From contig JAGBSR010000063.1 in assembly GCA_017631745.1 (NCBI GenBank), positions 1-31,214 of the forward strand: a stretch of DNA of 31,214 nucleotides, in the 5' to 3' direction. Of the stretch, positions 1-28,988 are shown piece by piece. Under the pieces are notes generated by a model. That model made no database searches. It saw nothing but the letters and a program-made list of their open reading frames with translations, and had not been told where the DNA came from. Each line of letters begins with the position of its first letter. The first letter of the stretch is position 1. Both the position numbers and the translations under genes were made by a program. This DNA is from Clostridia bacterium (lineage in GTDB: Bacteria; Bacillota; Clostridia; Oscillospirales; Acutalibacteraceae).

Positions 1-62
1 GATGTGGTGCCCTCAGAATATATATGGCTTAAGTTTTTGGTTTCAAGAACAACTGCGCTCAT
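1..62 (-). CDS. ecfA2: ECF transporter ATPase EcfA2, N-terminal fragment (runs off window start)
   Basis: ATG at 62 reads MSAVVLETKNLSHIYSEGTT, like EcfA2 N-termini; starts 4 nt after the ecfA1 stop; not in the ORF track. Confidence 0.6.
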   Translation of the reverse strand, partial: MSAVVLETKNLSHIYSEGTT

Positions 63-66
63 TTTT

Positions 67-918
67 TCACACCTTTTTGATTCTGATAATTTCGCTTAAA
101 AGCTCTTCTACAGTGAGAATGTTGCCTTTGATGTCCACGCCCTCATTTTTAAGCTCACGGGCAAGGAAGGTTGATTCGGGCACATCAAGACCCACTTGTT
201 TAAGAATATCTATATGGCTGAAAACCTCTCTCGGCTCGCCGTCAAGGATGATTTCACCCTTTTCCATAACAATTACACGTTTTGCTTTGGCAGCCTCATC
301 CATATAGTGAGTGATGAAGATAACTGTGATGCCGTATTCCTCGTTGAGCATTTTAACGGTATCCATTACTTCTTTTCTGCCTCTGGGGTCAAGCATAGAT
401 GTGGGCTCGTCTAAAACGATGCACTGAGGCTGCATTGCGATAATGCCTGCAATGGCAACTCTCTGCTTCTGACCGCCTGAAAGCTTGTGAGGCTCTGAAA
501 GACGAAAATCGTACATACCGACTCTCTTTAAGGCTTCGTCAACTCTTTTTCTGATTTCTGTGGGCTCAACACCTAAATTTTCCGGGCCGAAAGCTACGTC
601 ATCTTCAACTATAGTTGCAACTATCTGATTGTCGGGATTTTGGAATACCATACCGACCTTTTGTCTTATATCGTTGATAGTTTCTTCGTCGGCAGTGTCA
701 ATGCCATCGACTAAAACCTGACCTGACTGAGGAATATTTATGCCGTTGCAAAGCTTTGCTACAGTACTCTTACCGCAGCCGTTATGACCGAGTACCGCAA
801 CGAAATCGCCTTTTTTTATCTTCAAAGAGAAGTTTTCAATAATAGTTTCGCCTATATTGTTATCTTCGTCCTCGTCGTAAGAAAAGGTAACATTTTTAAA
901 TTCGATAAAGTTATCCAT
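67..918 (-). CDS. ecfA1: Energy-coupling factor transporter ATPase EcfA1
   Basis: Walker A GHNGCGKST, Q-loop FQNPDNQIV, signature LSGGQKQR, Walker B VLDEPT. Start moved to ATG 918, which follows AAGGAG. Confidence 0.92.
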   Translation of the reverse strand: MDNFIEFKNVTFSYDEDEDNNIGETIIENFSLKIKKGDFVAVLGHNGCGKSTVAKLCNGINIPQSGQVLVDGIDTADEETINDIRQKVGMVFQNPDNQIVATIVEDDVAFGPENLGVEPTEIRKRVDEALKRVGMYDFRLSEPHKLSGGQKQRVAIAGIIAMQPQCIVLDEPTSMLDPRGRKEVMDTVKMLNEEYGITVIFITHYMDEAAKAKRVIVMEKGEIILDGEPREVFSHIDILKQVGLDVPESTFLARELKNEGVDIKGNILTVEELLSEIIRIKKV

Positions 919-923
919 AAACT

Positions 924-1790
924 TTACTCCTTTTCCCATATAGCAGATGCACCGCAGGGAAGAATCATACCGCTGTCTGTAACGGGCAGACCGATTTCTG
1001 ATGAAGAAACCTTACCGCCGAATTTCTTTTTGATAACAGCGCCTAAAATATATTCCATAACTGAGGATGAAAGACCTGTTGTGTAGGAATTGATGAGCAT
1101 CATAAGGGAATCTTCATATAAAAGCTCACTGCAAAGCTCAACAAAGCCGTAAACCTCATCTTCTAACTTCCATACTTCACCGCCGGGGCCTCTGCCGTAT
1201 GAGGGCGGGTCCATAATGATGATGTCGTATTTGTTACCGCGGCGGATTTCTCTCTGAACAAACTTGATACAGTCGTCAACTATCCAGCGTACACTGCCGT
1301 CGGCAACGCCTGAAGAGATAGCATTTTCCTTTGCCCAGGCTGTCATACCCTTTGATGCATCAACGTGCACAACGTGGGCATTTTCCATTAAAGGAGCAAC
1401 AGTTGCACCGCCTGTGTATGCAAAGAGGTTGAGCACCTTGACGGGTCTGCCTGCTTTTCTGATGACTTCTCTGGTGTAGTCCCAGTTAACAGCCTGCTCA
1501 GGAAAAAGACCTGTGTGCTTGAAGCCCATAGTCTTGATATTGAAGGTCATATCCTTATAGTTGATGCTCCAGAACGGGGGCATCTTGCTTCTCACTTCCC
1601 ATTCACCGCCGCCTGACTTTGAACGGTGGTAGTAAGCGTCAGCCTTGCGCCACAAGGGATTTTTCTTGGGAGTCTTCCAGATAACCTGAGGGTCGGGGCG
1701 TACCAGAACGATATTGCCCCATCGCTCTAACTTTTCACCGTCGGAGCAATCAATGAGCTCGTAATCTTTCCAATCTTTTGTATATCTCAT
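924..1790 (-). CDS. Class I SAM-dependent methyltransferase (RlmI/RlmK-like)
   Basis: VLNLFAYTGG SAM-binding motif and DIIIMDPPSY motif; HTGLFPEQ. Confidence 0.85.
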   Translation of the reverse strand: MRYTKDWKDYELIDCSDGEKLERWGNIVLVRPDPQVIWKTPKKNPLWRKADAYYHRSKSGGGEWEVRSKMPPFWSINYKDMTFNIKTMGFKHTGLFPEQAVNWDYTREVIRKAGRPVKVLNLFAYTGGATVAPLMENAHVVHVDASKGMTAWAKENAISSGVADGSVRWIVDDCIKFVQREIRRGNKYDIIIMDPPSYGRGPGGEVWKLEDEVYGFVELCSELLYEDSLMMLINSYTTGLSSSVMEYILGAVIKKKFGGKVSSSEIGLPVTDSGMILPCGASAIWEKE

Positions 1791-1812
1791 AGTTTTACCT
1801 CTTAATCATAAC

Positions 1813-2832
1813 TTAAAACATTTGCTGCTGACCCGGTACAGGTAAGCCGAGATGCTCGTATGCGGCAGGAGTTGCAACTCTGCCTCTCGGTGTTCTGCCA
1901 AGGAAGCCTATCTGCATAAGATAGGGCTCGTAGACATCTTCGATTGTCACTGCCTCTTCACCGATAGCTGCTGCGATAGTCTCAAGACCAACGGGGCCGC
2001 CGCCGTAAGATTTAATCATAGTTGAAAGAAGAAGTCTGTCTATTGAGTCGAGACCCATATTGTCAATTTCCATTTTTTCAAGAGCGTGGTCGGCACTGTC
2101 TTCATCGATGATGCCGTCGCCCACAACCTGAGCGAAGTCTCTTGCTCTCTTTAAAAGTCTGTTGGCAATTCGTGGTGTACCTCTTGAACGGGAGGCAATC
2201 TCGAGTGCGCCGTATTTTTCTATATCAATGCCGAGGATGCCTGCGCTTCTTGTTACGATCTGAGCAAGCTCTTCGGGAGTGTACAATTCGAGTCTGAGAA
2301 TAACACCGAATCGGTCACGAAGAGGAGCCGAAAGCTGACCTGCTCTTGTGGTGGCACCCACAAGGGTGAACTTGGGAAGGTCGAGTCTGATTGATCTTGC
2401 CGAGGGGCCCTTACCGATGATGATGTCAAGGGCATTGTCTTCCATTGCAGGATAGAGTACTTCTTCAACGCTTCTGTTAAGGCGGTGAATTTCGTCGATG
2501 AAAAGTACATCGCCCTCGTTGAGGTTTGTGAGCAGCGCCGCAAGGTCGCCCTGCTTTTCGATTGCAGGACCTGATGTTACTCGGAAGTTAACATTCATCT
2601 CATTTGCGATGATGCCTGCAAGAGTTGTTTTACCCAGACCCGGAGGGCCGTAGAGAAGCACATGGTCGAGAGTCTCACCTCTCGCCTTAGCGGCTTTTAT
2701 ATATACCTCAAGGTTTTCCTTTGCCTTTTCCTGACCGATATAATCTGTCAGTACTCTCGGGCGAAGGGAGGTTTCTATATCAGAGTCAAGGCCCGTATAA
2801 TCGGGAGCCATTATTCTTTCTTCAAAATCCAT
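1813..2832 (-). CDS. ruvB: Holliday junction branch migration helicase RuvB
   Basis: [12 protein letters not shown], Walker [30 protein letters not shown]. Confidence 0.98.
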
Positions 2833-2843
2833 TATCTTTCACC

Positions 2844-3449
2844 TTACATCTTACTTAAGATTTTAAGAGCTTGTTTAATGAGGCTCTGCACATCAAGTGA
2901 GGGGTCAAGCTTGCTGACAGCCACACTCGCGTCAGACTGTGAGTAACCGAGCATTGTCAGAGCCGCAACAGCTTCGCTTGTGTTGGGCATTTCTGTTACC
3001 GCGCCTATTCTGTCGGCATTTTCAAACATCTCACCGTCGGGGATTACACTCTTGACCTTATCCTTAAGGTCGAGGATAATTCGCTGTGCAATCTTAGGGC
3101 CGATACCGCTTGCACGGGTGATTGATTTTGCATCCTTGGTGGAAATTGCAAGGGCGATTTCGTCAACTGTCAGCTCAGATAAAATTGCAAGAGCCGCCTT
3201 GGGGCCTACGCCGTTTACGGTGATGAGCATCTTGAACCACTCGAGCTCATATTCTGTGGAAAAGCCGAAAAGGTCAAGGGCGTCTTCGCGGACATTGAGG
3301 TGGGTATAAACTGTGCCTTCGGATTTGTCGTCGGGCAAATCGTAAAGAGTGAAACGGGATGTATAACACATAAAGCCTACACCGCCGCAGCTTATTACGG
3401 CATAATTTGTGCCCTTATTGATAACTTTGCCTGTGAGTGAATAGAACAT
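2844..3449 (-). CDS. ruvA: Holliday junction DNA-binding protein RuvA
   Basis: HhH motifs VNGVGPKAALAILS and ASGIGPKIAQRI; C-terminal EAVAALTMLGY; lies between ruvC and ruvB. Confidence 0.96.
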   Translation of the reverse strand: MFYSLTGKVINKGTNYAVISCGGVGFMCYTSRFTLYDLPDDKSEGTVYTHLNVREDALDLFGFSTEYELEWFKMLITVNGVGPKAALAILSELTVDEIALAISTKDAKSITRASGIGPKIAQRIILDLKDKVKSVIPDGEMFENADRIGAVTEMPNTSEAVAALTMLGYSQSDASVAVSKLDPSLDVQSLIKQALKILSKM

Positions 3450-3452
3450 AGC

Positions 3453-3962
3453 TTATATCCCCTTTCTGATTCGTAAATTGTTTGTCATAAGTGAGCCGCT
3501 TGCGTGGGCGTGGCAGATAGCCATTGCCAGAGCATCGGCTGTGTCGTCGGGCTTGGGTACTTTTTCGAGAGCAAGAATTCTTCTTGTCATTTCCTGCACC
3601 TGCTTCTTCTCAGCTCTGCCGTAACCGACTACACTCTGCTTAACCTGCAAGGGTGTATATTCAAATGCCGGTACCGCATTTTTCTGAGCTGCAAGCATTA
3701 TTACGCCTCGTGCCTGACTTACATCGATAACGGTCTTTGCGTTGTTGTTGTAAAAGAGCTTTTCAATAGCCATTGCTTCGGGCTTATGTCGCTCAATTAT
3801 TGCTGTAAGTCCGTCGTATATTTTTTCGAGTCTTATATTAAAAGGTGTGCCCGCATCGGTTAAAATTGCACCGTAATCGATAACACTGAAGTGGTTATTT
3901 TTATATTCAATCACTCCGTAACCGACTATGGCATAACCCGGGTCGATACCTAAGATAATCAT
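3453..3962 (-). CDS. ruvC: Crossover junction endodeoxyribonuclease RuvC
   Basis: ILGIDPG, AIEKLF, QARGV, PDDTADALAMAICH. Confidence 0.97.
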   Translation of the reverse strand: MIILGIDPGYAIVGYGVIEYKNNHFSVIDYGAILTDAGTPFNIRLEKIYDGLTAIIERHKPEAMAIEKLFYNNNAKTVIDVSQARGVIMLAAQKNAVPAFEYTPLQVKQSVVGYGRAEKKQVQEMTRRILALEKVPKPDDTADALAMAICHAHASGSLMTNNLRIRKGI

Positions 3963-3992
3963 GGCATACTACCTCACTATAATAATCAACAT

Positions 3993-4021
3993 ATTATATC
4001 ACAAATTATAGCTTTGAGCAA
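3993..4021 (-). promoter_or_regulatory. Putative sigma-A promoter of ruvCAB
   Basis: TTGCTC-17 nt-TATAAT with a TG extension. Confidence 0.6.
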
Positions 4022-4062
4022 TAGAAAAAGTCAGATTTTTCCGAATATTCCGTGGCTTTTAA

Positions 4063-4177
4063 GTGGGATGAAGAGGGCAGGCAGGGGCTCAGGAAAATTC
4101 CTGCGGAATTTTTGAGAGACGAAGTCTCTCAGCTGTGCCTTCGGCACAGCCCTGAGCCCCTGTCCCACCGTCTGCAG
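4063..4177. repeat. Four-way-junction palindromic element, copy E1
   Basis: Outer stem 4082-4093/4151-4162 encloses three abutting 19-nt hairpins (loops TGC, GAA, TTC); similar structure at 14815 and 27996. Confidence 0.8.
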
Positions 4178-4182
4178 AGCCT

Positions 4183-4209
4183 AAAAAAAGAGCCGGCAAC
4201 TGCCGACTC
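4183..4209 (-). terminator. Intrinsic terminator after the GtrA-family gene
   Basis: Minus strand GAGTCGGC-AGTT-GCCGGCTC followed by T7. Confidence 0.8.
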
Positions 4210-4215
4210 AAAAAT

Positions 4216-4674
4216 TCACTTTTTCTTCCTGAACACAACCAACTTGGAAAAGACATAGTTCAGCACTACAACTGCCGCGGCAAGAACCACTTTCGCAAGG
4301 GTTTCGCCACCGACGGTGAAACCAAGCACCTGCCAGGATATATCTTTCATACCTGCTAAATCCACAAGAGCAACCAAACCGAGTTGTTCCACAAGCAGGG
4401 AAAAAACTCTCGCGGCAAAGAAAGAAGATGCCTCTTTCAATACAAGACCAACATCCCATTTCTTGCTTTCAAAAACGAAAAGCTTGTTGGTCACATAGGC
4501 GAAAACCACGGATACAAACCAGGCTATGATATTGGAAACCCAATACAATTCCACGCCCAGAAGCATATTGAACAGCTCATAGACCAGGAAATTCACCAGA
4601 GTAGTACCCACGCCGAAAATGCCGTAGATAATCAGCTCTTTATATTTAATTATCAGATTCTTGATTGTCTTCAT
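4216..4674 (-). CDS. GtrA family membrane protein (putative lipid-linked sugar flippase)
   Basis: YGIFGVGTTLVN, FAYVTNKLFVF, NYVFSKLVVF motifs; four hydrophobic segments; overlaps the GT2 gene end. Confidence 0.88.
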   Translation of the reverse strand: MKTIKNLIIKYKELIIYGIFGVGTTLVNFLVYELFNMLLGVELYWVSNIIAWFVSVVFAYVTNKLFVFESKKWDVGLVLKEASSFFAARVFSLLVEQLGLVALVDLAGMKDISWQVLGFTVGGETLAKVVLAAAVVVLNYVFSKLVVFRKKK

Positions 4675-5581
4675 AACTTAAAATCTCTTTTGAAATAAAT
4701 ATTGGTCTGTCCTTGACCTGTGTGTGTACCTTGCCGAGATATGCTCCACTGATGCCCTGACAGATAAGCACAAGTGAGCCCGCAAAGAGCACTGCCGAAA
4801 TAATGCCGTAGTAAGGTGCAAGCAAGCCGATTATGCCGAAAACAACTGAAATTACAAGCAGAATTGCACCGAGATATAAAGGCAGTTTAAGAGGCTTGTC
4901 TGTGTAAGCCATAATGCCCTCAATAGCGTAGGCTATAAGCTTTTTAAGATTCCACTTGGTCTCTCCGTTTTCGCGGTCTCTGACCTCATAGGGTATAGAA
5001 ACAGTATTGTAACCCACCCATGAGAATATGCCCTTTGAGAAGCGGTGATATTCGGGCAGAGCCACGATAGTATCAGCTACACACTTGCGAAGAGTACGGA
5101 AATCGCTTGCATCACTGATAAAGTCTATGCCCGACATCTTACTGATAGTCTTATAAAATGTGTGCTTGCCCTTAGAAAGAGCTTTGCCCTCTTTGCGGTG
5201 AGCCTGATATGCGGCAACCATATCGCAGTCAGGGTCACTGTCAAGTATCCTTGCCATTTCAACTGCATACTTGGGGTCCTGCTGTAAATCGGCATCAATT
5301 ATTGTGATGTACTCACCTACCGCCTGAGTGAAGCCTGTATACATAGCAGCTTCCTTACCGAAGTTGCGGGAAAAATTAATCACCTTTATTCTGACATCCT
5401 TATTCTCATTGAATATCTGTCTTAACTTTTTAGGGGTAGTGTCCTTACTGCCGTCGTTGACAAAAATAATCTCATAGGAGTCAGTATAGCCTTTCATAGC
5501 TTCAACTGTCTCTTTAAGGAAATTTTCAACATTACCCTCTTCGTTATAGCAGGGTACTATAAGGCTGTGCTTTACTGACAT
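4646..5581 (-). CDS. GT2 glycosyltransferase, GtrB/bactoprenol glycosyltransferase-like
   Basis: IVPCYNEE, FVNDGSKD, FSRNFGKEAA, IDADLQ, RFSKGIFSWVG; two C-terminal TM helices. Confidence 0.9.
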   Translation of the reverse strand: MSVKHSLIVPCYNEEGNVENFLKETVEAMKGYTDSYEIIFVNDGSKDTTPKKLRQIFNENKDVRIKVINFSRNFGKEAAMYTGFTQAVGEYITIIDADLQQDPKYAVEMARILDSDPDCDMVAAYQAHRKEGKALSKGKHTFYKTISKMSGIDFISDASDFRTLRKCVADTIVALPEYHRFSKGIFSWVGYNTVSIPYEVRDRENGETKWNLKKLIAYAIEGIMAYTDKPLKLPLYLGAILLVISVVFGIIGLLAPYYGIISAVLFAGSLVLICQGISGAYLGKVHTQVKDRPIFISKEILSYEDNQESDN

Positions 5582-5603
5582 AGCAATTCTCCTTTAAGGT
5601 GAA

Positions 5604-6926
5604 TTATTTTCCATCTCTTTCGCGTACGACAAACTTTGTCGGTGTACCCTCAAGGCCGAAAATCTCTCTTATCTGATTATCAAGATAACGCTGATAGCTG
5701 TAATGGAACAGCTCCTTATCATTGACAAAGCAGACAAACGTGGGAGGTCTTGTGGAGGCCTGAGTCATATAATAAATCTTGAGTCTCTTGCCCTTATCTG
5801 TGGGGGGCTGTACTCTTGCGGTAGCTGCAGCGAGAACGTCGTTGAGCTTACCTGTTGAAATTCTCATTGAGTTCTGCTCGTCGACAAACTTGATAAGCTC
5901 AAAGAGTCTGTCAAGGCGCTGACCTGTTTTAGCAGAAATGAAGATAATGGGAGCATAAGACATAAATGAGAAGTCGTTCATAAGCTTCTTTCTGTAGCTG
6001 TCCATTGTCTTGCCGTCTTTTTCAAGAGCATCCCATTTATTTACAGCGATAATACAAGCCTTACCCATTTCGTGAGCAATGCCTGCAACCTTGCTGTCCT
6101 GCTCGGTAAAGCCCTCAAGAGCGTCGATCATAATAACGCATACACTTGCTCTTTCAACGGCCATTTTGGCTCTGATAACGCTGTATTTTTCAATCTGATC
6201 CTCGACCTTGCTCTTTCTTCTGAGACCTGCAGTATCAATAAACATAAAGTCGCCGAATTCGTTATTGATGAAAGTATCTGTAGCATCACGGGTGGTACCT
6301 GCAATGTTTGAAACGATAGCTCTCTCTTCGCCTGAAATAGCATTGATGAGTGAGGATTTGCCTACATTGGGCTTGCCGATAACCGCAACCTTGATGGTAC
6401 TATCGTCGATTTCCTCCTCCTCGTCCTCGGGAAGATGTTCCATAACCGCATCAAGAAGGTCGCCTGTACCGTGACCGTGAACTGATGAAACAGCAATGGG
6501 GTCGCCGAGACCTAAGTTGTAGAATTCGTAGAATTCCATAGGAGGCTCACCGACCTTGTCGCACTTGTTAACACAAAGCACGATGGGCTTATTACTCTTG
6601 AGAAGCATAGCTGCAACATCTTCGTCGGTTGCAACAACGCCCGAATGAATATCAGTAACGAGTACGATAACATCGGCAGAGTCAATTGCAAGCTGAGCCT
6701 GACGGCGCATCTGCTTTAAGATAATATCGTCTGAGTGGGGCTCGATACCGCCTGTATCTATAAGAAGAAAATGACGGTTGAGCCATTCACAGTCACCGTA
6801 AATTCTGTCTCGGGTAACACCGGGGGTGTCGTCAACAATTGACAGACGCTGACCGATAAGCTTATTGAAAAGTGTAGACTTACCTACATTGGGTCTGCCT
6901 ACAATAGCAACGATGGGTCTTGCCAT
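5604..6926 (-). CDS. der: Ribosome biogenesis GTPase Der (EngA)
   Basis: Two G domains (GRPNVGKS, GKPNVGKS; DTGG, DTAG; NKCD, NKWD) and a KH-like C-terminus. Confidence 0.98.
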   Translation of the reverse strand: MARPIVAIVGRPNVGKSTLFNKLIGQRLSIVDDTPGVTRDRIYGDCEWLNRHFLLIDTGGIEPHSDDIILKQMRRQAQLAIDSADVIVLVTDIHSGVVATDEDVAAMLLKSNKPIVLCVNKCDKVGEPPMEFYEFYNLGLGDPIAVSSVHGHGTGDLLDAVMEHLPEDEEEEIDDSTIKVAVIGKPNVGKSSLINAISGEERAIVSNIAGTTRDATDTFINNEFGDFMFIDTAGLRRKSKVEDQIEKYSVIRAKMAVERASVCVIMIDALEGFTEQDSKVAGIAHEMGKACIIAVNKWDALEKDGKTMDSYRKKLMNDFSFMSYAPIIFISAKTGQRLDRLFELIKFVDEQNSMRISTGKLNDVLAAATARVQPPTDKGKRLKIYYMTQASTRPPTFVCFVNDKELFHYSYQRYLDNQIREIFGLEGTPTKFVVRERDGK

Positions 6927-6947
6927 TTAATTCACCATCCTTTTTTA

Positions 6948-8249
6948 TTATTGGCCCATGAACGAGCCGAACAGACTGCCGCCTGTGCAGTCATCAACTT
7001 TAAGATTAACACCGAGAGCTTCTTCAACCTCCTGAGTGCTCACACTGTCAAGGAAGAGGTCGCCCTCGCTTCTGAGCATAACCTGAGGTATGGCAAGGTC
7101 CTTTGCCAAGGGCTTATCTCTGAGCTGACCTATAAGGTCATTGCCCGTAATAAGACCTGCCACGGTTATACTGTGACCGAAAAAGTCGTTCTTTATTTCG
7201 TAAACATCTATTTTACTTTTATTATACTTGCTCATAAAGATTTCTGCAAGCTCTTTTATCAGAGGATAAGCCGCCACGCCCGTTGCCACACTCAGGTGAG
7301 TTTCAGGGTCGGCATCCTCGCAATTTTCAATTTCACAGAGGAATTCTTCTTTCAGTGAAGTCCACATACCCACGCCGTTTTCTATCTGGCAATAGGTTTC
7401 GTAATATTCACCGTCAGGCAAAGCTCTGCCCGACTTGAGATAAAATTCATCAGCGGCATAGACGAGTCTTGTGCCGTATTCTGCCTTGAACTTTTCACCG
7501 AATTCATCGATGATATCTATAACCTCTGCTGCGGTTTCTTTTGTGTACTCAGGCATATCGAAAAGGCCCTCGCGGTGCTTTGTCACACCTACAGGTACAC
7601 AAGCAATGCTCTGAAGATTTTCGCCAAGCTCGCCTAATTTTTCAAGGGAATAGCGAAGCTCCTGACCGTCGTTGATTCCGGGACAAAGCACAAGCTGAGT
7701 GTTTATCGCAATGTCGTTTTGGGCTAAGCGATGAAGTACAGACAGGCTCTCACCTGCGTTTTTGTTTTTCATCATATGCACACGAAGCTCTTTATTCATA
7801 GTGTGCACACTGACATTGACAGGGCTGATGTGCATTTCGATAATCTTTTCCACATCTCTTTCACTAAGGTTAGTCAGAGTGATATAGTTGCCGAAAAGAA
7901 ATGACAGCCTAGAATCGTCGTCTTTGAAATATATTGACTCACGAAGACCCTTGGGATTCTGGTCGATGAAGCAGAAAATACACTTGTTTTTGCAGTGTCT
8001 TTCCTTATCCATAAGATATGTTTCAAAGGTGAGACCTAAATCCTCATCCTCGCCTTTTTTAATCCACACAGCCTTGGTTTTGCCGCCGCTTTCATAGACA
8101 ACACTTATTTTAATATCTTTTGTGTAAAACTGATAATCAAGAAAGTCTGTTATTTCGTGCCCTGATATTTTAATGAGGGTATCCCCTGCTTTTATGCCCT
8201 TTTTATAGGCAGGTGAAGACTTTATAACATCTTTAATTAAAACCGACAT
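6948..8249 (-). CDS. DUF512 family protein (N-terminal PDZ-like domain, putative radical SAM Fe-S)
   Basis: CKNKCIFC CxxxCxxC motif, YFKDDDSRLSFLFGNYITLTN, QIENGVGM, TVAGLITG; sits upstream of der. Confidence 0.88.
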   Translation of the reverse strand: MSVLIKDVIKSSPAYKKGIKAGDTLIKISGHEITDFLDYQFYTKDIKISVVYESGGKTKAVWIKKGEDEDLGLTFETYLMDKERHCKNKCIFCFIDQNPKGLRESIYFKDDDSRLSFLFGNYITLTNLSERDVEKIIEMHISPVNVSVHTMNKELRVHMMKNKNAGESLSVLHRLAQNDIAINTQLVLCPGINDGQELRYSLEKLGELGENLQSIACVPVGVTKHREGLFDMPEYTKETAAEVIDIIDEFGEKFKAEYGTRLVYAADEFYLKSGRALPDGEYYETYCQIENGVGMWTSLKEEFLCEIENCEDADPETHLSVATGVAAYPLIKELAEIFMSKYNKSKIDVYEIKNDFFGHSITVAGLITGNDLIGQLRDKPLAKDLAIPQVMLRSEGDLFLDSVSTQEVEEALGVNLKVDDCTGGSLFGSFMGQ

Positions 8250-8267
8250 AAAATAACCCTTTCTTAA

Positions 8268-8298
8268 AGTTAGAAGTTAGGAGTGAGGAGTTAGGAGT
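8268..8298. repeat. Tandem heptamer repeat (AGTTAGG-type, about 4.5 units)
   Basis: AGTTAGA-AGTTAGG-AGTGAGG-AGTTAGG-AGT. Confidence 0.65.
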
Positions 8299-8333
8299 TT
8301 AACGCCTTGCTATTCACTCTTTAAAAATTAAAT

Positions 8334-8367
8334 AGAGGTGGGAAAGCGAGTCTGCTTCTCCACCTCT
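8334..8367 (-). terminator. Hairpin after rpmF, probable terminator
   Basis: AGAGGTGG...CCACCTCT stem with an interrupted T-rich tail on the minus strand. Confidence 0.55.
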
Positions 8368-8382
8368 CAAAGTTCCAAAGGC

Positions 8383-8568
8383 TTAGTCTTCGTCCTTAAC
8401 AACAACCTGCTTACCTTTGTAATAGCCGCATTCGCCGCAAACCTTATGGGGTACAGTGTATGCACCGCACTGCTTGCATCTTACAAGTGTGGGAGCCTCA
8501 AGCTTCCATACATTTGAACGTCTCTTATCTCTTCTTGCCTTTGATACTCTTCTCTTTGGTACTGCCAT
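8383..8568 (-). CDS. rpmF: 50S ribosomal protein L32 (Zn-binding form)
   Basis: MAVPKRRVSKARRDKRRS, CxxC...CxxC, GYYKG. Confidence 0.98.
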   Translation of the reverse strand: MAVPKRRVSKARRDKRRSNVWKLEAPTLVRCKQCGAYTVPHKVCGECGYYKGKQVVVKDED

Positions 8569-8608
8569 CTTTCAGCACCTCCTTTTATAATATTAAAGTT
8601 AAACTTAC

Positions 8609-9103
8609 TTATTCGTCCAAAAGACCAAGGAGCACCTCGAATCGGGGGTCGATGTCTTTTTTGCATTCGCACGGACCGTCATTTAAGTTTGCACCGCATT
8701 TCGGGCAAAGCCCCTTGCAATCGTCGTCGCAGAGGAATTTACTCGGCAGAGCAAAGTAAATGTCTTCTAAAGTGAGCTGCTTAATGTCGAGCTTCATATT
8801 TTCTGCGATGATGAACTCATCTGTTTCATCGTTCTGAAGCTCAGAAACAAGAATATGCTCAATGGGTACTTCCATATCATATGTCACACCCTCAGCACAC
8901 CTGCTGCAGTAAACATCAAGACTGAAAGTAGCTACGGCCTTAAGTGACACTATCTCGGCAACATTTGTGATTTCACCTTTGAGACAAACAGGTGTCGTGA
9001 ATGGAAACACACCGTCAACCTCTTCTTCGGAGAAGTCAAACTGAAGGTCGAGAGGTATCTCTGTGATACCGCCATTAAACAGGTTTTCAAGTTCAATAAA
9101 CAT
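8609..9103 (-). CDS. DUF177/YceD family protein
   Basis: CSRC, LCDDDCKGLCPKCGANLN, DPRF; canonical position upstream of rpmF. Confidence 0.92.
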   Translation of the reverse strand: MFIELENLFNGGITEIPLDLQFDFSEEEVDGVFPFTTPVCLKGEITNVAEIVSLKAVATFSLDVYCSRCAEGVTYDMEVPIEHILVSELQNDETDEFIIAENMKLDIKQLTLEDIYFALPSKFLCDDDCKGLCPKCGANLNDGPCECKKDIDPRFEVLLGLLDE

Positions 9104-9128
9104 AACTCACCTCATATTAACGAATAAC

Positions 9129-9157
9129 ATTATATATATCTATCTTCGATTTGTCAA
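9129..9157 (-). promoter_or_regulatory. Sigma-A promoter of yceD-rpmF
   Basis: Perfect TTGACA-17 nt-TATAAT. Confidence 0.85.
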
Positions 9158-9243
9158 TAAAAAACTGCAAAATACTTTAAAAAATTTTAAATACTGCCCT
9201 ATTTCACCTTTTAAGAGCCCTGAGGCTCAGGCAAGGGGGGCTT

Positions 9244-12200
9244 TTATTTGGTTTTCACCGAAAGCACCGCGGAATATGCGCCGTAATATACATCCTCGCC
9301 TACAACGCGTACAGCCCTGACTTTGACCTTATAGGTTGTGGCTGCCTTGCGGTTGGTGAATGTGATAGAGTTGGTGTCTGTGGTATTATAGATGACATAT
9401 TTGCCCTTTGATGAGCTGTAAATTGCAACCTCATAATATGTGGCACCCGTGGTCTTTTTCCAGCTGAGCTTAAAGCTCTTGGAGGCAACCGATGAAGCCT
9501 TGAGACTTGTGACCTGCACGGGGTTTGTGGCAAACTTGAACGCCGATGAGGCTGTGCCTGCGGCAATCTCCTTGCCGTTCTTCATATATACACCCTTGAC
9601 CTTATAGCTGTAGGTCTTGCCTGCAGAAAGGCCTGTTACGGTGTAGCTCAGAGACTCGGTCTTGCCGATAATCTCATATTTCTTTGAGCTTGAGGAATAA
9701 CGGTATACATAGTAGTAATTGGCACCGGGAGTCTGATTCCAGGAAAGCTTATGAGATGTGGTCTTCACACTGCTGACAGACATTTTTTCAGGCTTAGCGG
9801 GCTTTGTGACCGCACTGACAGAGGTCATTGAGCCCTTGACGGTTGACGAGGAAAGCTTGATATAAGCTCTGATATAAAACTCATACTCACTGCCCTCGGA
9901 AAGTCCTGTGACCTTGTGAGATGTGCCTGTGGAGGTACCCACAAGAACATACTGTCCGTCTTCGAGAAGATAAATATTATAGCTGTCGGCATTTTCAACT
10001 GCGCTCCAGGTAAATTTCACTGTCTGAGTGTAAGCTGTTGCAGTGAAGTCTTTGACCTTGGCGGGAGTTGTTGCCGCAATGACCTCGGAGGAATATGCGC
10101 TTTCATATTTCTGAGTGCCCGATTTGTACACTGCCGTAATCTTATAGGTATCAATCTGACCGTAATCGAGACCGCCTATATGATAGGAGTTGTTGTCCAC
10201 CGTTGCAACAAGCTCATAGCCGTCGTCATTCAGGCGGTATACATTATAGGAAACCGCATCGGCAATCTTAGTCCATGAAAGCTTATATGAAGCTGACTTG
10301 ACATCGGTGACCTTTATATTTTCGGGTACGGGATAGTCGGTCATTGCACCTGCACTCTCGCTGAAATCGGAATAGACCGTCTTGCCGTTTTTCACGCCTA
10401 CTGCTTTTACGGCAAAGGTGTAATGCTTATTATAATACTGCACCGTTACGGTAGCCTGAGAATCTTCTGTAACAAGCTTTTCAACATATTTTTTCTTGGT
10501 GTCTGAATAAACATAAACGGCGTATTTGTCAGCACCCTCATTTTCCTGCCAGGAAAGAGTAACACTATTGCCCTTTACATAGTCAACGGTCAGGTCTTCA
10601 ACTGTACCGAGAGCCGTTGTGATTTTCACGCTTTTGCTGAAGTTGCCCGTCTGTGTGAGATATACGCCCTCAGCCACGGCAGCAACCTTTATTTCATAGT
10701 CGGTGAATTCACCCAGGTCGCCGAGAGTATAGACAACATCCTCTGTCTCGCCTACTAAGATATTTTCCTTTCCGCTGACAATATAGATATTGTAATAGCT
10801 TGCACCCTGAGCATCAGCCCAGCTGAGCTTGACTTCATTCACACCGATACTGTCGCATTTAAAGGAGGTTACGGTTTCGGGAAGAGTCATTGCATTTACA
10901 GGTACCGATGTCTCCGACACACAGCCGCCCTTTACCGCCGCAACAGCATAGGTCTTTTCCTCGCCTGCTTCAAGGTCTGTAACGGTGAAGCTGTTTGTCT
11001 TTGAGGTTGCAAGGAAGGTAGCATTTTTGCCTGCCATTGTATATATCTCGTATGAATCTGCACCGGGAGATTTTTCCCACACGAGAGTGTATGAATCGGA
11101 ACCGACTTCAACTACACCGAGGTTTGCGGGAATTTCGGGTGCTTCTGCGAGAGTTACCGCATCGGAATATTCACCGTAGACAACACTGCCGCCTTCATCG
11201 CTGTAGGCTCTGATGTAATATCTGTCGAAGTCGAGAGAATACTTATCAATAAGAGTGTAGCTGCAGCCCTCAAGAGCGTCTGCAATTTCAACATATTCAC
11301 CCTCGGCAACATTATAGCCGTAAATGATATAGCCTGTGCAGTAGCTGACCTCGTCCCAGGAAAATCTTACATCACTGCCCACGGCTTCAGCCTTGAAGAG
11401 AGTGATTTTATCCGGTGTGTGGGATACACCGTCGGTTGCGCTGTGAATAACAGCACTCGGAGAATAAACACTGACAACGGACTTATCAAGCAGAGCTCTG
11501 ACACTGACAGTGTAGCGCTGACCCTTTCTCAGGCCCGAGAAAACAGCTGAGGGTGAGGCTGATGAGGTGTTGGCGATGATGTTGCCTTTTTCGTCACAGA
11601 TGCCGAAGGCGTATTTCTCTGCACCTATCATTTCATCGCAGGTGATTCTGATATTTGTATCATCCGATGAAAGTCTGAGATTCTGCGGTTTTGCAACCTC
11701 CTCATCGGATACAATATATTTTACAATGTCGTATCTTCCTACTGAGTCGTAGGCAGTAAGATGAACTGTGCCGCTTTTAAGGAAGCTGACTGTATTTTTC
11801 GATGTTACCTTTGCAATGGCACTGTTTGATGACACAAGAGCCATTTCAGTTTCATTGCCTGCAAACCAGCCTATCTCGTGCTCACCGATACCCACAGAGG
11901 TATATGAGGTATAGGTGACGAAATCCTCAGGCACATAGCCCGTATAAGATTTGGAGTTGTAGGTGAACTTGATTTCCACCCAATGAGGATATTTCAGCTG
12001 ATTGATGTAGTATTTTGAATCGGTGAAGGTCTTGGAGAGAATTTTCACCTCGTGACCCGATGTAAGGCGGATAATGTTGCCACTTTTATCGCTGAGCTGT
12101 GCGTTGTTGGTAGAAGGTCCCGTGCGCACATAACAGCTGCTCTGCTGAATGATAGCATTCTGCACAAGGCTGTCGGCATTGGATGCCTTCTGGGATGTCA

Positions 12201-13278
12201 TATCCTCTGAGGGCATATTTTTATAAACGGGAATTGAGAAAATATAGGTCTGATAAAGGTTGCCTGTTTTGGCGTAAGCGGTGTAGCTTGTATAGCCCTG
12301 AGAGCAGGCACCCGTGAGGTTAGTCATATACTGATGAGTGTAAAGTGAGCCCGTAGCCTTATTGACATTGAACTTCTGAAGATAGCCCGTAAACTGACCC
12401 TTTGCGATATACTTTTCGACTATGTACGCCGCACCGCCCTTAATGGATTTGGCGGGCGTAGTCCAGGGTCTTTTATAGGTTGTGCCGCCTGAAGCCCACT
12501 CGAGACCTCGGGTTATTGCGCCGGCACCGTCTGTGGCGCCGATGTTGTAGAAATTATATATGCCCGGATAAACCGAATGAGTACCCGACACGCTTGCACT
12601 GCCGTCTGCACCTACCTCATTTCTGATTTTTGAAGCAAGATAGCAGGGGTTTACATTGTTTTCCTGACCTGCCTCAAAAATCACCTGAGCATAGGTCTTG
12701 GAGCTTTTTTCCTTTTCTCCCTCGGCTGTGTAGTAGGTAATTTTTGTGTCATACATAAATGTGCCCTTGAGCACACTTTCAACATCCTCCATTGTTACGG
12801 CATCACTGAAGGTCAGCTTCTCAAACTGAAAGATACCCTCTTCATTGAGGAAATTTCTCGGGTCCATATAATATTCAACAGCAAGACGGTTAGCCACAAC
12901 GAAGCCGCCGTCTTTCTCGATATACTTATCCGTAGACTGATTATAGTGGCCCGATTCCTTGCTCTTGAGGTTTTCACTTGCAGCGCTGTCGCTTATAAGA
13001 TTTTTTATACCCCACTGATTGTCTATAACGGTATCCCACTCAAGGTCAGTTTCAAATGCTTCAAAAACCCAGTCGGGATATTTTTCGTGAAGCTCACGCA
13101 GATAGGGCTTGTAGCTTTCGGGGAAATCTGCAATGCTCGCCTCAAAATCCTCTGATGCTGTGCTCACTTCAAGGTTGTCTTCAACAGCATAAGACAAAAG
13201 ACCTGCACCCGCAGATAAGACTATTGCGAGTGTGAGAGTCATTATAAGCAAAACCAGTCTGTTTTTATATTTAAACAT
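9244..13278 (-). CDS. Secreted cell-wall hydrolase-like protein: glucosaminidase (GH73-like) + SH3-like + multiple FN3 domains, 1344 aa
   Basis: Signal peptide; YYMDPRNFL, SKIRNEVG, GIYNFYNIGA, HQYMTN motifs; YVRTGPS SH3b-like; repeated W...Y..Y...L..G..Y...V.A FN3 patterns. Start placed at ATG 13278 after AAGGA. Confidence 0.75.
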   Translation of the reverse strand: MFKYKNRLVLLIMTLTLAIVLSAGAGLLSYAVEDNLEVSTASEDFEASIADFPESYKPYLRELHEKYPDWVFEAFETDLEWDTVIDNQWGIKNLISDSAASENLKSKESGHYNQSTDKYIEKDGGFVVANRLAVEYYMDPRNFLNEEGIFQFEKLTFSDAVTMEDVESVLKGTFMYDTKITYYTAEGEKEKSSKTYAQVIFEAGQENNVNPCYLASKIRNEVGADGSASVSGTHSVYPGIYNFYNIGATDGAGAITRGLEWASGGTTYKRPWTTPAKSIKGGAAYIVEKYIAKGQFTGYLQKFNVNKATGSLYTHQYMTNLTGACSQGYTSYTAYAKTGNLYQTYIFSIPVYKNMPSEDMTSQKASNADSLVQNAIIQQSSCYVRTGPSTNNAQLSDKSGNIIRLTSGHEVKILSKTFTDSKYYINQLKYPHWVEIKFTYNSKSYTGYVPEDFVTYTSYTSVGIGEHEIGWFAGNETEMALVSSNSAIAKVTSKNTVSFLKSGTVHLTAYDSVGRYDIVKYIVSDEEVAKPQNLRLSSDDTNIRITCDEMIGAEKYAFGICDEKGNIIANTSSASPSAVFSGLRKGQRYTVSVRALLDKSVVSVYSPSAVIHSATDGVSHTPDKITLFKAEAVGSDVRFSWDEVSYCTGYIIYGYNVAEGEYVEIADALEGCSYTLIDKYSLDFDRYYIRAYSDEGGSVVYGEYSDAVTLAEAPEIPANLGVVEVGSDSYTLVWEKSPGADSYEIYTMAGKNATFLATSKTNSFTVTDLEAGEEKTYAVAAVKGGCVSETSVPVNAMTLPETVTSFKCDSIGVNEVKLSWADAQGASYYNIYIVSGKENILVGETEDVVYTLGDLGEFTDYEIKVAAVAEGVYLTQTGNFSKSVKITTALGTVEDLTVDYVKGNSVTLSWQENEGADKYAVYVYSDTKKKYVEKLVTEDSQATVTVQYYNKHYTFAVKAVGVKNGKTVYSDFSESAGAMTDYPVPENIKVTDVKSASYKLSWTKIADAVSYNVYRLNDDGYELVATVDNNSYHIGGLDYGQIDTYKITAVYKSGTQKYESAYSSEVIAATTPAKVKDFTATAYTQTVKFTWSAVENADSYNIYLLEDGQYVLVGTSTGTSHKVTGLSEGSEYEFYIRAYIKLSSSTVKGSMTSVSAVTKPAKPEKMSVSSVKTTSHKLSWNQTPGANYYYVYRYSSSSKKYEIIGKTESLSYTVTGLSAGKTYSYKVKGVYMKNGKEIAAGTASSAFKFATNPVQVTSLKASSVASKSFKLSWKKTTGATYYEVAIYSSSKGKYVIYNTTDTNSITFTNRKAATTYKVKVRAVRVVGEDVYYGAYSAVLSVKTK

Positions 13279-13385
13279 AATTTCATTCCTTTGCTTGGAA
13301 AAATCCATTATAATTTTATCAAAAAAAGTCAAATTTTGCAACCTTAATCATTACAAATTAAAACTTTGTTATTACAAATTTAATA

Positions 13386-13414
13386 TTGAAAAACCTTGGC
13401 AGTGTGTATATAAT
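13386..13414 (+). promoter_or_regulatory. Putative sigma-A promoter of the CCA-adding enzyme gene
   Basis: TTGAAA-17 nt-TATAAT. Confidence 0.6.
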
Positions 13415-13437
13415 AAAACAGAAACGAGGTGATTTTA

Positions 13438-14766
13438 ATGCTGATACCCGAAAAAGCACAGATAATATTTCAACTGCTCTCAAATGCAGGCTATGAGTGC
13501 TTTCTTGTAGGCGGATGTGTAAGAGATATGCTCATGGGTAAAGAGCCCCACGATATTGACATCACTACCAACGCCCTGCCCGAAGAGACCAAGGCTGTCT
13601 TTTCAGCTTTTCATACCCTTGATATCGGCATTAAGCACGGCACAATAACTGTTATTATTGACGGTGAGCCTATTGAAATCACCACCTACCGCACCGAAAG
13701 TGAATACACCGACGGCAGACACCCCGACAGGGTTACCTTCACAGCAAATATAAAAGATGACTTATCACGAAGAGATTTTACCTGTAATGCTATCGCATAT
13801 AATCCTGCCGTCGGCCTGGTTGACCCCTTCGGCGGAATGGCTGACATTGAAAGCAAAACACTTCGATGCGTGGGCATTGCCGAAGAGAGATTCAGAGAGG
13901 ATTCCCTGAGAATTCTGCGTGCACTTAGATTTGCAAGCTGTCTCGGCTTCGACATTGAAGATGACACCGCCAAAGCCATGTACACCTGCCGTGAGCTGAT
14001 AAATATCGTCTCTCCCGAGAGAATTTACACCGAGATTTCAAAGCTTATCTGCGGTAAAAATGCAGGTGAGATAATCTCCCTTTATTCCGACATTCTGGCT
14101 GTACCACTGCCTGAAATCAAAGATATGAAAGGCTTTCAGCAGCACAATTTTCATCATATATACGATGTTTTAAATCACACAGCTAAGGTGGTTGACTCTG
14201 TCTCCCCTGCCGCAACATTAAGGCTCGCTGCCCTCTTTCACGATTGCGGAAAGCCCGACTGCTTCAGCATCGACGAAAATGGTGTTGGGCATTTCTACTC
14301 CCACGCTTCGATATCTGCAAGAAAGGCAAACGAGGCACTGCTGAGACTTCGCTGTGACAACGCCACAAGAGAAAAAGTCGTAAAGCTGGTCAAAATCCAC
14401 GACTCACCTATTGAGCCTGACAGCAAGACTGTCAAGAAAAAGCTTCAGAAATACGGTGAGGAGATATTCTTTGACCTGATTAAGCTTCAGCGAGCAGACA
14501 ACAAAGGACTCTCTCCTGAGTTTCTTTATCGGCAGGAAACCTATGACAAGCTTGAAGAAATTGCGAGGCAGGTCATAGAGGAAAATCAGTGCTTTTCGCT
14601 GAAAGATTTAGCCGTGAACGGCAGAGATATGATAGATCTCGGACTTAAGGGAAAAGACATCGGACTTGCTCTCGACCTGCTTTTAAAGGCTGTTATTGAG
14701 GAGCAATGTCAAAATGACAGAGAGTCGCTATTGATATATTATCATAGGAATGTGAAATCTGTATAA
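13438..14766 (+). CDS. cca: tRNA nucleotidyltransferase (CCA-adding enzyme, class II) with HD domain
   Basis: GGCVRDML, DIDITT, DLSRRDFTCNAIA, EDSLRILRALRF, ALFHDCGKP. ATG 13438 follows GAGGTG. CCA-adding versus poly(A) or partial specificity cannot be settled by eye. Confidence 0.8.
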   Translation: MLIPEKAQIIFQLLSNAGYECFLVGGCVRDMLMGKEPHDIDITTNALPEETKAVFSAFHTLDIGIKHGTITVIIDGEPIEITTYRTESEYTDGRHPDRVTFTANIKDDLSRRDFTCNAIAYNPAVGLVDPFGGMADIESKTLRCVGIAEERFREDSLRILRALRFASCLGFDIEDDTAKAMYTCRELINIVSPERIYTEISKLICGKNAGEIISLYSDILAVPLPEIKDMKGFQQHNFHHIYDVLNHTAKVVDSVSPAATLRLAALFHDCGKPDCFSIDENGVGHFYSHASISARKANEALLRLRCDNATREKVVKLVKIHDSPIEPDSKTVKKKLQKYGEEIFFDLIKLQRADNKGLSPEFLYRQETYDKLEEIARQVIEENQCFSLKDLAVNGRDMIDLGLKGKDIGLALDLLLKAVIEEQCQNDRESLLIYYHRNVKSV

Positions 14767-14771
14767 AATTC

Positions 14772-14800
14772 AAGAGCAGCCGTTGAGGTTGCTCTTTTTT
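14772..14800 (+). terminator. Intrinsic terminator of cca
   Basis: AAGAGCAGCC-GTTGA-GGTTGCTCTT followed by a T tract. Confidence 0.8.
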
Positions 14801-14814
14801 ATTTAACGAACAGC

Positions 14815-14915
14815 CTGAGGGCGGGTGCGGCGGCTCCATACCCGAACTGCGTTCGGGTCGGCTACTGCTGTAGCCGTAAATCGCGCAGCGATTTAATGGA
14901 GCCGCCTCCCACCTT
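14815..14915. repeat. Four-way-junction palindromic element, copy E3 (inverted relative to E1 and E2)
   Basis: Stem GGCGGCTCCAT/ATGGAGCCGCC (14829-14839/14896-14906) encloses three abutting hairpins (loops TGC, TGCT, GCA). Confidence 0.8.
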
Positions 14916-14939
14916 TACCGAAACCTCCCCCGTATACAC

Positions 14940-14969
14940 AAAAAGACAGCCTGATTATCAGACTGTCTT
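14940..14969 (-). terminator. Terminator hairpin for the GH27 gene
   Basis: Minus strand AAGACAGTCTGAT-A-ATCAGGCTGTCTT followed by further Ts. Confidence 0.65.
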
Positions 14970-14983
14970 AATTTTATATTGTT

Positions 14984-15040
14984 GCCCTCGCCGGGCGGGC
15001 GTTACTTTTTGCTGCCGCACAAAAAGCAACCAAAAATGCG
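14984..15040. repeat. Intergenic palindrome (GTTACTTTTTG...CAAAAAGCAAC type)
   Basis: Hairpins GCCC-TCGCC-GGGC and GTTACTTTTTG...CAAAAAGCAAC; single copy in this window. Confidence 0.4.
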
Positions 15041-15058
15041 GAGATGCTTTTTGCTTTT

Positions 15059-16708: not shown

Positions 16709-16763
16709 ACATATATCTCCTTTTAAATAAAATTAGTTTCGTAGCAAATGATGATCTGTTATA

Positions 16764-17076: not shown

Positions 17077-17109
17077 CATAAAGCCTACCGTAATTTTATG
17101 CACAAGCTT

Positions 17110-19316: not shown

Positions 19317-19351
19317 ACCGACTCTCCTTTCCCGCATAATCAATCATTGTA

Positions 19352-19380: not shown

Positions 19381-19389
19381 ATAATTTAT

Positions 19390-19422: not shown

Positions 19423-19429
19423 CATAAAA

Positions 19430-26390: not shown

Positions 26391-26413
26391 TAATTATTTA
26401 TTCGGTTTAGTGA

Positions 26414-27905: not shown

Positions 27906-27995
27906 TCTTGTCCCTCCGGATTTATACTATATATACTAATATTCACAATCCGTGAGTAACATTCGTGCAGGAGGAAAATTTTGCTTTGCCGTAAG

Positions 27996-28109
27996 AGTGA
28001 GGGGCGGCTCAGGAAAAATCCGCTATGCGGATTTTGGCGCGCAGAACGCAGTTCTGTGCGCGGTGTGCGGCTTCGCCGCACACCCAGAGTCGGCACCCCA
28101 CCGCCTGCA
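27996..28109. repeat. Four-way-junction palindromic element, copy E2
   Basis: Stem CGGCTCAGG/CCAGAGTCG encloses three hairpins (loops TAT, GCA, TTC); flank CCACCGCCTGCA matches E1 CCACCGTCTGCA. Confidence 0.8.
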
Positions 28110-28988
28110 CTAACTTACAATTTCAGCAATCTCCCTTGCCGTAAGACCTCTCTGCAAAGCAGTGTTTATCCCCATAGCAATAAGGTGTGAGGCATTGTCA
28201 ATAAGGCTGTCGATTTCCTTGGGCGTGACCATCATCTGACGGTGTGCGCTCAGGTCAATATCAGGCAGAGCCACACCTGCCTTTTCAAAAACATCTGTAG
28301 CCATAGTCAGCGCATCCACCACCGTCGGCACACCCACAGCAATAACGGGCACACCCAGAGTTTCGGCATTGATGCCCTTTCTTCTGTTGCCCACACCCGA
28401 CCCCGGTGACACACCCGTATCGCAAAGCTGAACCGTATTGCCGAGCCTTGCCGTTTCTCTTGAAGCGAGGGCATCGATGACAATAACACAGCAGGGCGAA
28501 ATCTTCTCAACCACACCGCTGATAATTTCCACTGTTTCAATGCCCGTTTTACCGAGCACACCGGGCACAATGCCTGCCACACTGCGAAGCTCACCGAGAC
28601 CGAGACTCTCTGCAAGCTCACTGCCGATATGTCTTGTAGCAAATAGCTTGCCCACACTTTTAGGCCCGAGTGCATCGGGGGTTATGTCTTCATTGCCGAG
28701 GCCCGCCACAAGTACCGTGCCCTCTGAGGGAAGCAGGTCTCTGAGCTCACGGCTGAGAGCATAGCAGACAGCAGTGAAAACCTGACTGCTTTTATAGAGC
28801 TTTTCCGTTTCGAGGGTGATATATCTGCCTATGGGCTTGCCGATGAGCTTTTCACCCTGAGAGTTTATAATTTCTATGGTGGTGATTTTCACTCCGTCTT
28901 CACTTTTACAGGAGGATAAAACCCCGTCGAGTTTTTCTTTTTCGTGATATTCCTGCCTTTCTATGGCAAGATCTGTGCGAAAATTCAA
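28110..28988 (-). CDS. gpr: Germination protease GPR
   Basis: RTDLAIE, VAGLGNEDITPDALGP, PGVLGKTGIET, VIDALASR, GVPTVVDA, MVTPKEID; divergent from rpsT. Confidence 0.96.
   Translation of the reverse strand: MNFRTDLAIERQEYHEKEKLDGVLSSCKSEDGVKITTIEIINSQGEKLIGKPIGRYITLETEKLYKSSQVFTAVCYALSRELRDLLPSEGTVLVAGLGNEDITPDALGPKSVGKLFATRHIGSELAESLGLGELRSVAGIVPGVLGKTGIETVEIISGVVEKISPCCVIVIDALASRETARLGNTVQLCDTGVSPGSGVGNRRKGINAETLGVPVIAVGVPTVVDALTMATDVFEKAGVALPDIDLSAHRQMMVTPKEIDSLIDNASHLIAMGINTALQRGLTAREIAEIVS

Follow-up and report, generated by a model that had tools for sequence, protein, structure and literature searches.

Early in a 31,214-nucleotide stretch of DNA from a member of the Acutalibacteraceae (the window), a closing stem encloses three abutting hairpins to form a four-way junction. 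We call this element E1. Two further sites in the window, near 14.8 and 28 kb, share its plan. The locus raises the question of what kind of element this is, a structured RNA, a mobile DNA or a site that serves the host, and of how its fold is kept perfect.

Architecture of the three window elements

The initial annotation proposed a closing stem with three abutting hairpins at each of the three sites, and this was borne out by the sequence and by folding of both strands (Table 1). E1 consists of a G-rich leader, the four-way core and a C-rich trailer, with the AT-rich arm first. Its closing stem pairs CAGGGGCTCAGG (4082-4093) with CCTGAGCCCCTG (4151-4162), and positions 4094-4150 are taken up by three 8+3+8 hairpins that leave no unpaired base at the junction; the triloops are TGC, GAA and TTC. 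The element is antisense to both neighbouring genes and directly adjoins the terminator of the 4216-4674 gene. The 14.8-kb copy (core 14829-14906) is inverted relative to E1. Its closing stem, GGCGGCTCCAT (14829-14839) with ATGGAGCCGCC (14896-14906), surrounds arms at 14840-14895, and again no junction base is unpaired. The terminators mapped on its two sides place this copy between two terminators, in the class denoted >E< below. The 28-kb copy (core 28001-28099) is laid out likewise, but its arms are longer and its closing stem is imperfect; its last base overlaps the stop codon of the minus-strand 28110-28988 gene.

The minimum free energy fold was the four-way junction on both strands at all three sites. 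Fold z-scores for the two strands were -6.9 and -7.2 for E1, -8.7 and -8.6 for the 14.8-kb copy, and -6.2 and -4.5 for the 28-kb copy, and none of 200 shuffles folded as well as the window copies. The count of seven C-GNA-G loops among nine, read on either strand, was correct for these three copies.

Table 1. Positions of the elements and adjoining terminators in the window
Feature	Position	Strand	Description
E1, whole element	4062..4182	+	Covariance model R1 match, 64.4 bits, E 4.8e-15; GCTCAGG subfamily
E1, four-way-junction core	4082..4162	.	12-bp closing stem and three 8-bp arms
Terminator adjoining E1	4183..4209	-	Hairpin and T-run; intrinsic terminator of the 4216-4674 gene
Terminator of the 13429-14766 gene	14774..14802	+	From sequence; just upstream of the 14.8-kb copy
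14.8-kb copy, whole element	14808..14927	-	R1 match on the minus strand, 102.8 bits; CTCCAT subfamily
Terminator of the convergent 15059-16708 gene	14940..14969	-	From sequence
28-kb copy, including outer inverted ends GTGCAGG...CCTGCAC	27965..28110	+	R1 match, 40.8 bits

An interspersed family in the source genome

The source assembly (G000) is a 2.0-Mb draft metagenome-assembled genome (MAG) in 257 contigs, 87% complete and with 42.6% G+C, assigned to the Acutalibacteraceae. A structural scan found 56 perfect four-way junctions in this genome and a later scan found 63, while three locally shuffled genomes gave none each. A profile HMM built from 43 aligned copies recovered 98 loci with nhmmer, and covariance model R1 recovered at least ~95 with 150 of 442 candidates scored. 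The elements are ~125-150 bp long with four helices; at ~98 copies in 2.0 Mb they occupy ~0.6% of the genome, and all except the 11 of 98 that overlap crude ORF calls are intergenic. The genome-wide search for further copies, which the initial annotation had named as its own test, thus came out in favour of the family, which is far larger than the three copies proposed. The description of these elements as conserved in structure and not in sequence has to be given up, as a profile HMM built from sequence and a covariance model recover ~98 copies.

The consensus element has a G-rich end, (A)GTGnGCGGTAAAGGTGAG or CTGCAAGAGGTGAG, and a C-rich end, which form imperfect terminal inverted repeats, one being roughly the complement of the other. 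The 5' flank and the reverse-complemented 3' flank yield a single G-rich consensus ending in GGCGGCTCC. The closing stem, GGCGGCTCC(A/G)T, encloses arm 1, (G)AAATCGC-N3-GCGATTT(C), a variable, GC-rich arm 2 (CGAGGATGCC... or CGGCGAC...), and arm 3, which is (C)GCCGAAC-N3-GTTCGGC(G) or CGCCG-N4-CGGCG. Subfamilies were distinguished by closing stem as CTCCAT, CTCCGT, GCTCAGG and GCTGACG. The rarer, divergent GCTCAGG type includes E1 and the 28-kb copy, which explains why these two had seemed unrelated in sequence to the 14.8-kb copy. Copies share a median of 81% and at most 95% identity with their nearest paralog, and the median over all pairs is 65%. No two copies are identical, so nothing points to a very recent burst. 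Among 139 triloops across the genome, 64 (46%) are GNA or TNC, compared with 12.5% expected by chance; 122 are closed by C-G, and GNA and TNC number 34 and 30.

The closing stem (CTCCATG/CTCCGTG) was also considered as the start of a small ORF. Inspection by eye led us to reject this: the third base changes together with the base it pairs with, the variants being ATG, GTG, ATT, ATC and ATA, and the arm lengths break any frame.

Copies are over-represented at contig ends, with 17 of 98 within 200 nt of one (for example C13:9395-9457, C109:9393-9468, C229:4906-4958, C21:1-79 and C84:1-99), compared with ~5% expected. Assemblies of these MAGs often break at copies of the family, and the copy numbers given here are lower bounds for this reason.

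Covariation and strand symmetry

Pairing was quantified in alignment A1, where 94.6% of cells are paired. Changes on both sides are seen at 21 of the 29 pairs and amount to 189 cells, against few cells changed on one side. In a control with slid partners, pairing fell to 34-48% (maximum 47.5%), and none of 500 shuffles reached the observed pairing and covariation. This strong covariation supports the proposal of a dispersed non-coding element with a maintained fold. Across the 2306 core pairs, 2231 (~97%) are Watson-Crick, 34 are G.T and 41 are A.C; wobbles are therefore rare and without strand bias. The predicted stability of the oriented strand differed from that of its complement by a mean of only 0.65 kcal/mol in 62 full copies (sd 5.3, p 0.22).

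No match to a described RNA family emerged. With the whole window searched against Rfam at gathering thresholds there was no relevant match, and around E1 permissive E-values gave nothing below E 0.38. The one model to reach its gathering score was the lysine riboswitch aptamer (RF00168, 73.8 bits, E 1e-17) at 26226-26394 on the minus strand, upstream of the 25158-26324 ORF. No conserved promoter or terminator belonging to the element was seen in the flanks of the copies.

Position relative to genes and terminators

Copies were classed by the direction of the flanking genes relative to the element on a crude ORF map. The source genome gave 26 >E>, 23 <E<, 21 >E< and 9 <E> arrangements, and the same classes held 16, 18, 13 and 2 copies in the congener G014. 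Orientation is thus independent of flanking transcription and convergent gaps are favoured; neither genome has a gene-strand bias of element orientation. When orientation in G014 was compared with GC skew, the counts were 28 and 14 (p ~0.04, an estimate), a weak signal that derives mostly from one contig. Along G014:C30:1-220000, where GC skew is -0.05, 17 elements are on the plus strand and 5 on the minus strand, opposite to the gene-strand majority (67 plus, 131 minus); other contigs have no such orientation bias.

Nearly all copies lie 15-60 nt from a gene 3' end. A hairpin with a T-run directly adjoins the element on 61 of the 99 sides that face a gene 3' end and on 2 of the 71 that face a 5' end; as a background, such structures adjoin 215 of 611 gene 3' ends in the genome. 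In 53 of 56 cases the T-tract ends no more than ~8 nt from the first model position of the element. This tight juxtaposition suggests insertion next to terminators, with the terminator region as the presumed target, and selection for harmless sites could contribute to the adjacency. Two other readings were rejected. The T-runs are not part of the element, as they are enriched only on sides facing gene 3' ends and belong to the terminators there. The element is not itself an intrinsic terminator either, as its closing stem is followed by the C-rich trailer with no T-run, and the nearby T-runs are part of other hairpins, those of the adjacent genes.

Turnover at orthologous sites

Orthologous sites were compared over 798 kb of G014 and at 40 element loci of G005 and G024, with flanks matched by BLAST. 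The empty sites that the initial annotation had advised looking for were found in all three comparisons. For 17 sites of the source genome sought in G014, nhmmer found 10 occupied, the E1 site holds a flipped variant that nhmmer missed, and 6 are empty; in the reverse direction 8 of 22 sites are occupied and 14 are empty. Of 22 sites of G005 and G024 traced to the source genome, 14 hold an element in the same orientation and 3 in the opposite one, and 5 are empty. The site of the 28-kb copy is empty in G014, and the E1 site in G020 holds no element. Many shared sites carry different subfamilies or opposite orientations in the two species. In the G014 version of E1, arms 1 and 3 are exchanged and inverted and the middle arm keeps its GAA loop. 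Sites are therefore gained, lost, flipped or replaced between sister species. The differences at shared sites reflect either repeated insertion or inversion or conversion of the core between closing-stem repeats, and where subfamilies differ at one locus, gene conversion could have acted instead of repeated insertion.

Stems and loops behave very differently at these loci. We tallied 36 alignable orthologous arms from 21 pairs, with flank identity of ~70-92%. In these arms 263 base pairs are unchanged, 22 are changed on both sides and 6 on one side. This is the opposite of what independent mutation would give, which should produce mostly single-sided changes. In the loops, 41 of 82 bases differ (~50%), about threefold the flanking divergence, and 21 of 25 loops are changed; 11 further loops are altered in length and 3 are exact reverse complements. 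Paired changes are also seen in the window elements. E1 in G005 has A-T replaced by G-C in the closing stem and T-A replaced by C-G in arm 3. Orthologous copies of the 14.8-kb element in G014 and in the MAG HGM12821 differ in all three loops, and the sole stem change is a compensated A-T to G-C. For the 14.8-kb copy and C138 we found no stem changes against ~15% flank divergence. Stems that are better conserved than flanks at loci where two or three species carry the same subfamily could instead reflect a host function, which we return to below.

Filled and empty sites were aligned for G014, G015, G020 and G005; no target-site duplication was shown, with flank identities of ~70-92% that blur the junctions. 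At one filled and empty pair (G014:C30:184158-184252 and G000:C30:5184-5302), the element lies between a stop codon and the ribosome-binding site of the next gene, and both of its junctions resemble the single AAGGCAGGAG site of the source genome. In this one case, at ~78% identity, the site may hint at a purine-rich target or a duplication. Within the species, contigs from four metagenome runs on window positions 1-20000 (three DNA, one nominally RNA but probably DNA) contained no joint that skips E1 or the 14.8-kb copy. The nominally RNA run contained 5% of the words and showed no usable RNA signal. A different length change was seen in G014 at L072 (C23:126947-127833), orthologous to window positions ~14767-14815, where ~640 extra bases lie between the end of the homologue of the 13429-14766 gene and the orthologous element. 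SGB_7510 (L131) has the start of this insert as well.

Distribution of the family and search for a mobiliser

Covariance model R1 gave at least 81-86 matches in each of four congeneric species (G000, G005, G014 and G024), with at least 86 in G014, which is 98% complete. There were 12 matches in G020 and 3 in G015, all divergent relatives with the same closing stem and other arms, and none in 18 other congeners of the 24. Across 16 further families of the order there was one weak match. We counted 31 occurrences of the closing-stem pattern GGCGGCTCC-N48-78-GGAGCCGCC in the source genome and none in 400 other genomes representing 217 genera of the class. Perfect junctions occur at one per 32 kb in the source genome and one per 19 kb in G014, and a search of 273 kb from five congeners in which the element is absent or nearly so gave none, whatever the sequence. 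Among database records, the closest are MAGs of uncultured Acutalibacteraceae recovered from ruminant gut, and the metagenome runs that hold the window are from animal gut, bovine and manure sources. The family thus marks one sub-clade within an uncultured genus of Acutalibacteraceae from the ruminant gut, and in that sub-clade it has expanded to ~100 copies per genome.

Hairpins capped by C-GNA-G loops had led the initial annotation to suggest a link to IS200/IS605 or RAYT transposases of the HUH type. Across 41 genomes of the genus, the occurrence of the Pfam Y1_Tnp domain (PF01797) does not parallel that of the element. There was no match in G014 or G024, only fragments in the source genome (C242:9-164 and C67:2512-2673) and one full-length match in G005 (model positions 2-121), and the domain is present in many congeners without the element. 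No autonomous parent or insertion sequence with the same ends was found in these draft genomes. The partial copies in the source genome lie at contig ends or are arm variants, and the 798 kb of G014 gave one partial match.

Comparison with known repeats

In the literature searched we found no description of bacterial repeats with a closed four-way-junction or cloverleaf plan. The behaviour of the family is that of a REP- or MITE-like interspersed palindrome of a known kind; it is the architecture that is unusual. REPs and REPINs are built on short (20-40 bp) imperfect palindromes, one end of which carries a conserved GTAG (or CGTC) tag (PMC3733652). Like the REP, BIME and REPIN sequences of Proteobacteria, the elements described here are GC-rich palindromes present outside genes in many copies, often close to a gene 3' end and in either orientation, which form lineage-specific families and keep their pairing through compensated changes; such repeats are thought to be selfish DNA with possible secondary roles for the host (PMC3733652). 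The present element differs in being a nested palindrome of 125-150 bp instead of a single 20-40-bp hairpin or hairpin doublet, and in lacking GTAG or CGTC at a fixed end, CGTC being present only inside the closing stem of the rare GCTGACG subfamily. No associated RAYT was found, whereas in REP systems the RAYT gene is typically flanked by REPs, and the host is a Firmicute.

The MITEs Correia/CREE, ERIC/IRU, RUP and BOX (PMC10969869, PMC3184786) offer a second parallel in their length (~100-150 bp), terminal inverted repeats, intergenic position, subfamilies and presence or absence differences between related genomes. For the family described here, however, no parent insertion sequence with matching ends was found, the interior consists of three perfect hairpins and copies sit tight against terminator T-tracts. 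PATEs, which derive from IS200/IS605, have asymmetric subterminal hairpins, no terminal inverted repeats, strand-biased insertion and a TnpA that is present, whereas here the ends are symmetric, there is no gene-strand bias and TnpA was not found in G014. The inverted terminal repeat of the parvovirus AAV is a three-way, T-shaped telomere of a linear single-stranded viral DNA genome, resolved by Rep and found in flip and flop forms. By analogy only, it resembles the present element as a nested palindrome with small hairpins in a long stem and an interior found in both orientations, but the present element is a repeat interspersed in the chromosome and has three arms inside its stem.

RNA function, host function or mobile DNA

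A structured non-coding or cis-regulatory RNA, a cloverleaf-like fold with its own transcript or as part of 3' or 5' untranslated regions, would account for the strong covariation and the very stable predicted folds, and some copies do lie in leaders or between co-directional genes. Judged from sequence features, such an RNA function is very unlikely. The two strands fold equally, G.U-type pairs are rare and symmetric (34 and 41 of 2306), and two-sided changes far exceed one-sided ones in A1. Orientation is independent of flanking transcription (26 and 23), the majority of copies are placed past intrinsic terminators, with 21 in gaps between convergent genes, and whole cores are inverted at one locus. 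The flanks carry no conserved promoter or terminator of their own, and there is no Rfam family match. The symmetry of folds and wobbles, the free orientation and the placement beyond terminators together argue for the role at the level of DNA that the initial annotation had preferred over a non-coding RNA, and the evidence favours stems that would be kept perfectly paired in DNA rather than acting as RNA. The family is a caution for RNA discovery, as textbook covariation is present here with no sign of an RNA; covariation alone is therefore no proof of RNA function.

Among readings at the level of DNA, a REP/REPIN- or IS200/IS605-type single-stranded element, mobilised by an HUH Y1 transposase (RAYT or TnpA) encoded elsewhere in the genome, fits an extragenic, high-copy family whose hairpins are often capped by C-GNA-G-type loops, and the Y1_Tnp fragments in the source genome and the full-length match in G005 are consistent with it. 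We regard it as quite improbable, as G014 has at least 86 copies and no Y1_Tnp at 98% completeness, G024 also has none, and many congeners that carry the domain are free of the element. The consensus has no conserved GTAG or CGTC tag, GNA and TNC loops are equally frequent with no strand bias, and orientation relative to genes is unbiased. A host-domesticated cis-element is somewhat less doubtful, though still unlikely. The junction or cruciform would then be a putative site for binding or processing by a host protein, for which a nucleoid protein, gyrase or a junction-binding or resolving enzyme are candidates, or a barrier behind terminators, a role that has been proposed for E. coli BIMEs. 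The stems at shared orthologous loci are better conserved than their flanks, copies are placed very regularly beside terminators, no transposase follows the distribution of the family and there are no recent identical copies, all of which would suit such a role. Against it, searches of 18 of the 24 congeners and of the other sampled members of the class did not find the family, so close relatives can do without it. Roughly half the sites have no element at the orthologous position in a sister species, orientation and subfamily vary freely at one locus, and no partner protein was identified.

We favour, with some confidence, the interpretation of E1 and its companions as a lineage-specific, REP- or MITE-like palindromic DNA repeat that is non-coding, non-autonomous and selfish or mobile, and that is kept perfect by template-switching. 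The copies would spread by transposition or by targeted insertion next to terminators, with a mobiliser other than a Y1/HUH transposase. In single-stranded or supercoiled DNA the arms may extrude as hairpins, and template-switching during replication inside each inverted repeat would copy a change in one arm onto the other and occasionally invert the loop. The four-way junction would in this way stay perfect with no RNA function, and the exposed loops would mutate fast. Short inverted repeats are known to undergo template switching that makes their arms alike and inverts the spacer (PMC8604942; PMC7202029), and the match between these outcomes and the changes seen here is the reason for reading the perfect junction as self-maintaining. 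Quasipalindrome template-switch mutagenesis perfects imperfect inverted repeats and inverts spacers, which fits the 22:6 ratio of paired to single changes and the flipped loops; it is, however, a mutational process and not a family of elements (PMC7202029, PMC8604942), and it accounts for the upkeep of the fold and not for its origin or spread. A bolder version of this interpretation, which we put forward tentatively as a lesser possibility, is that the repeats represent an undescribed class of mobile DNA defined by structure, 'cloverleaf' palindromes that insert just past terminators, are not moved by HUH enzymes and repair themselves by template switching. Candidate movers for such a class would be a recombinase or nuclease that recognises junctions or hairpins, or replication-coupled copying. 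The family is a natural experiment on DNA palindromes in which stems change almost only in pairs and cores and loops flip, and it would offer a clean genomic read-out of hairpin extrusion and template switching, as we infer them to occur in vivo.

Other repeats and junctions

The source genome also holds a lone perfect four-way junction of unrelated sequence at C184:9250-9320. It gives no match to the family HMM and consists of the closing stem GGTGGCGGTG/CACCGCCACC around the arms CTGCAGCC-GAA, GCGGGCACC-TTT and GATTACGCCCCCC-TTG. A second, unrelated dispersed repeat lies in the window at 14965-15058, just before the stop of the 15059-16708 gene, with the core ...CCTCGCCGGGCGGGC...CTTTTTGC...GCAAAAAG...; it has ~20 partial copies in the source genome and many matches in G005, G014 and G024. 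Window positions 8268-8299 and 16763-17060 are repeats common to many organisms or sites, reaching 10-30 times the surrounding depth in metagenome contigs, with many loose ends. At 16763-17060, joints skip ~260 nt (from 16794 to 17055 or 17059).
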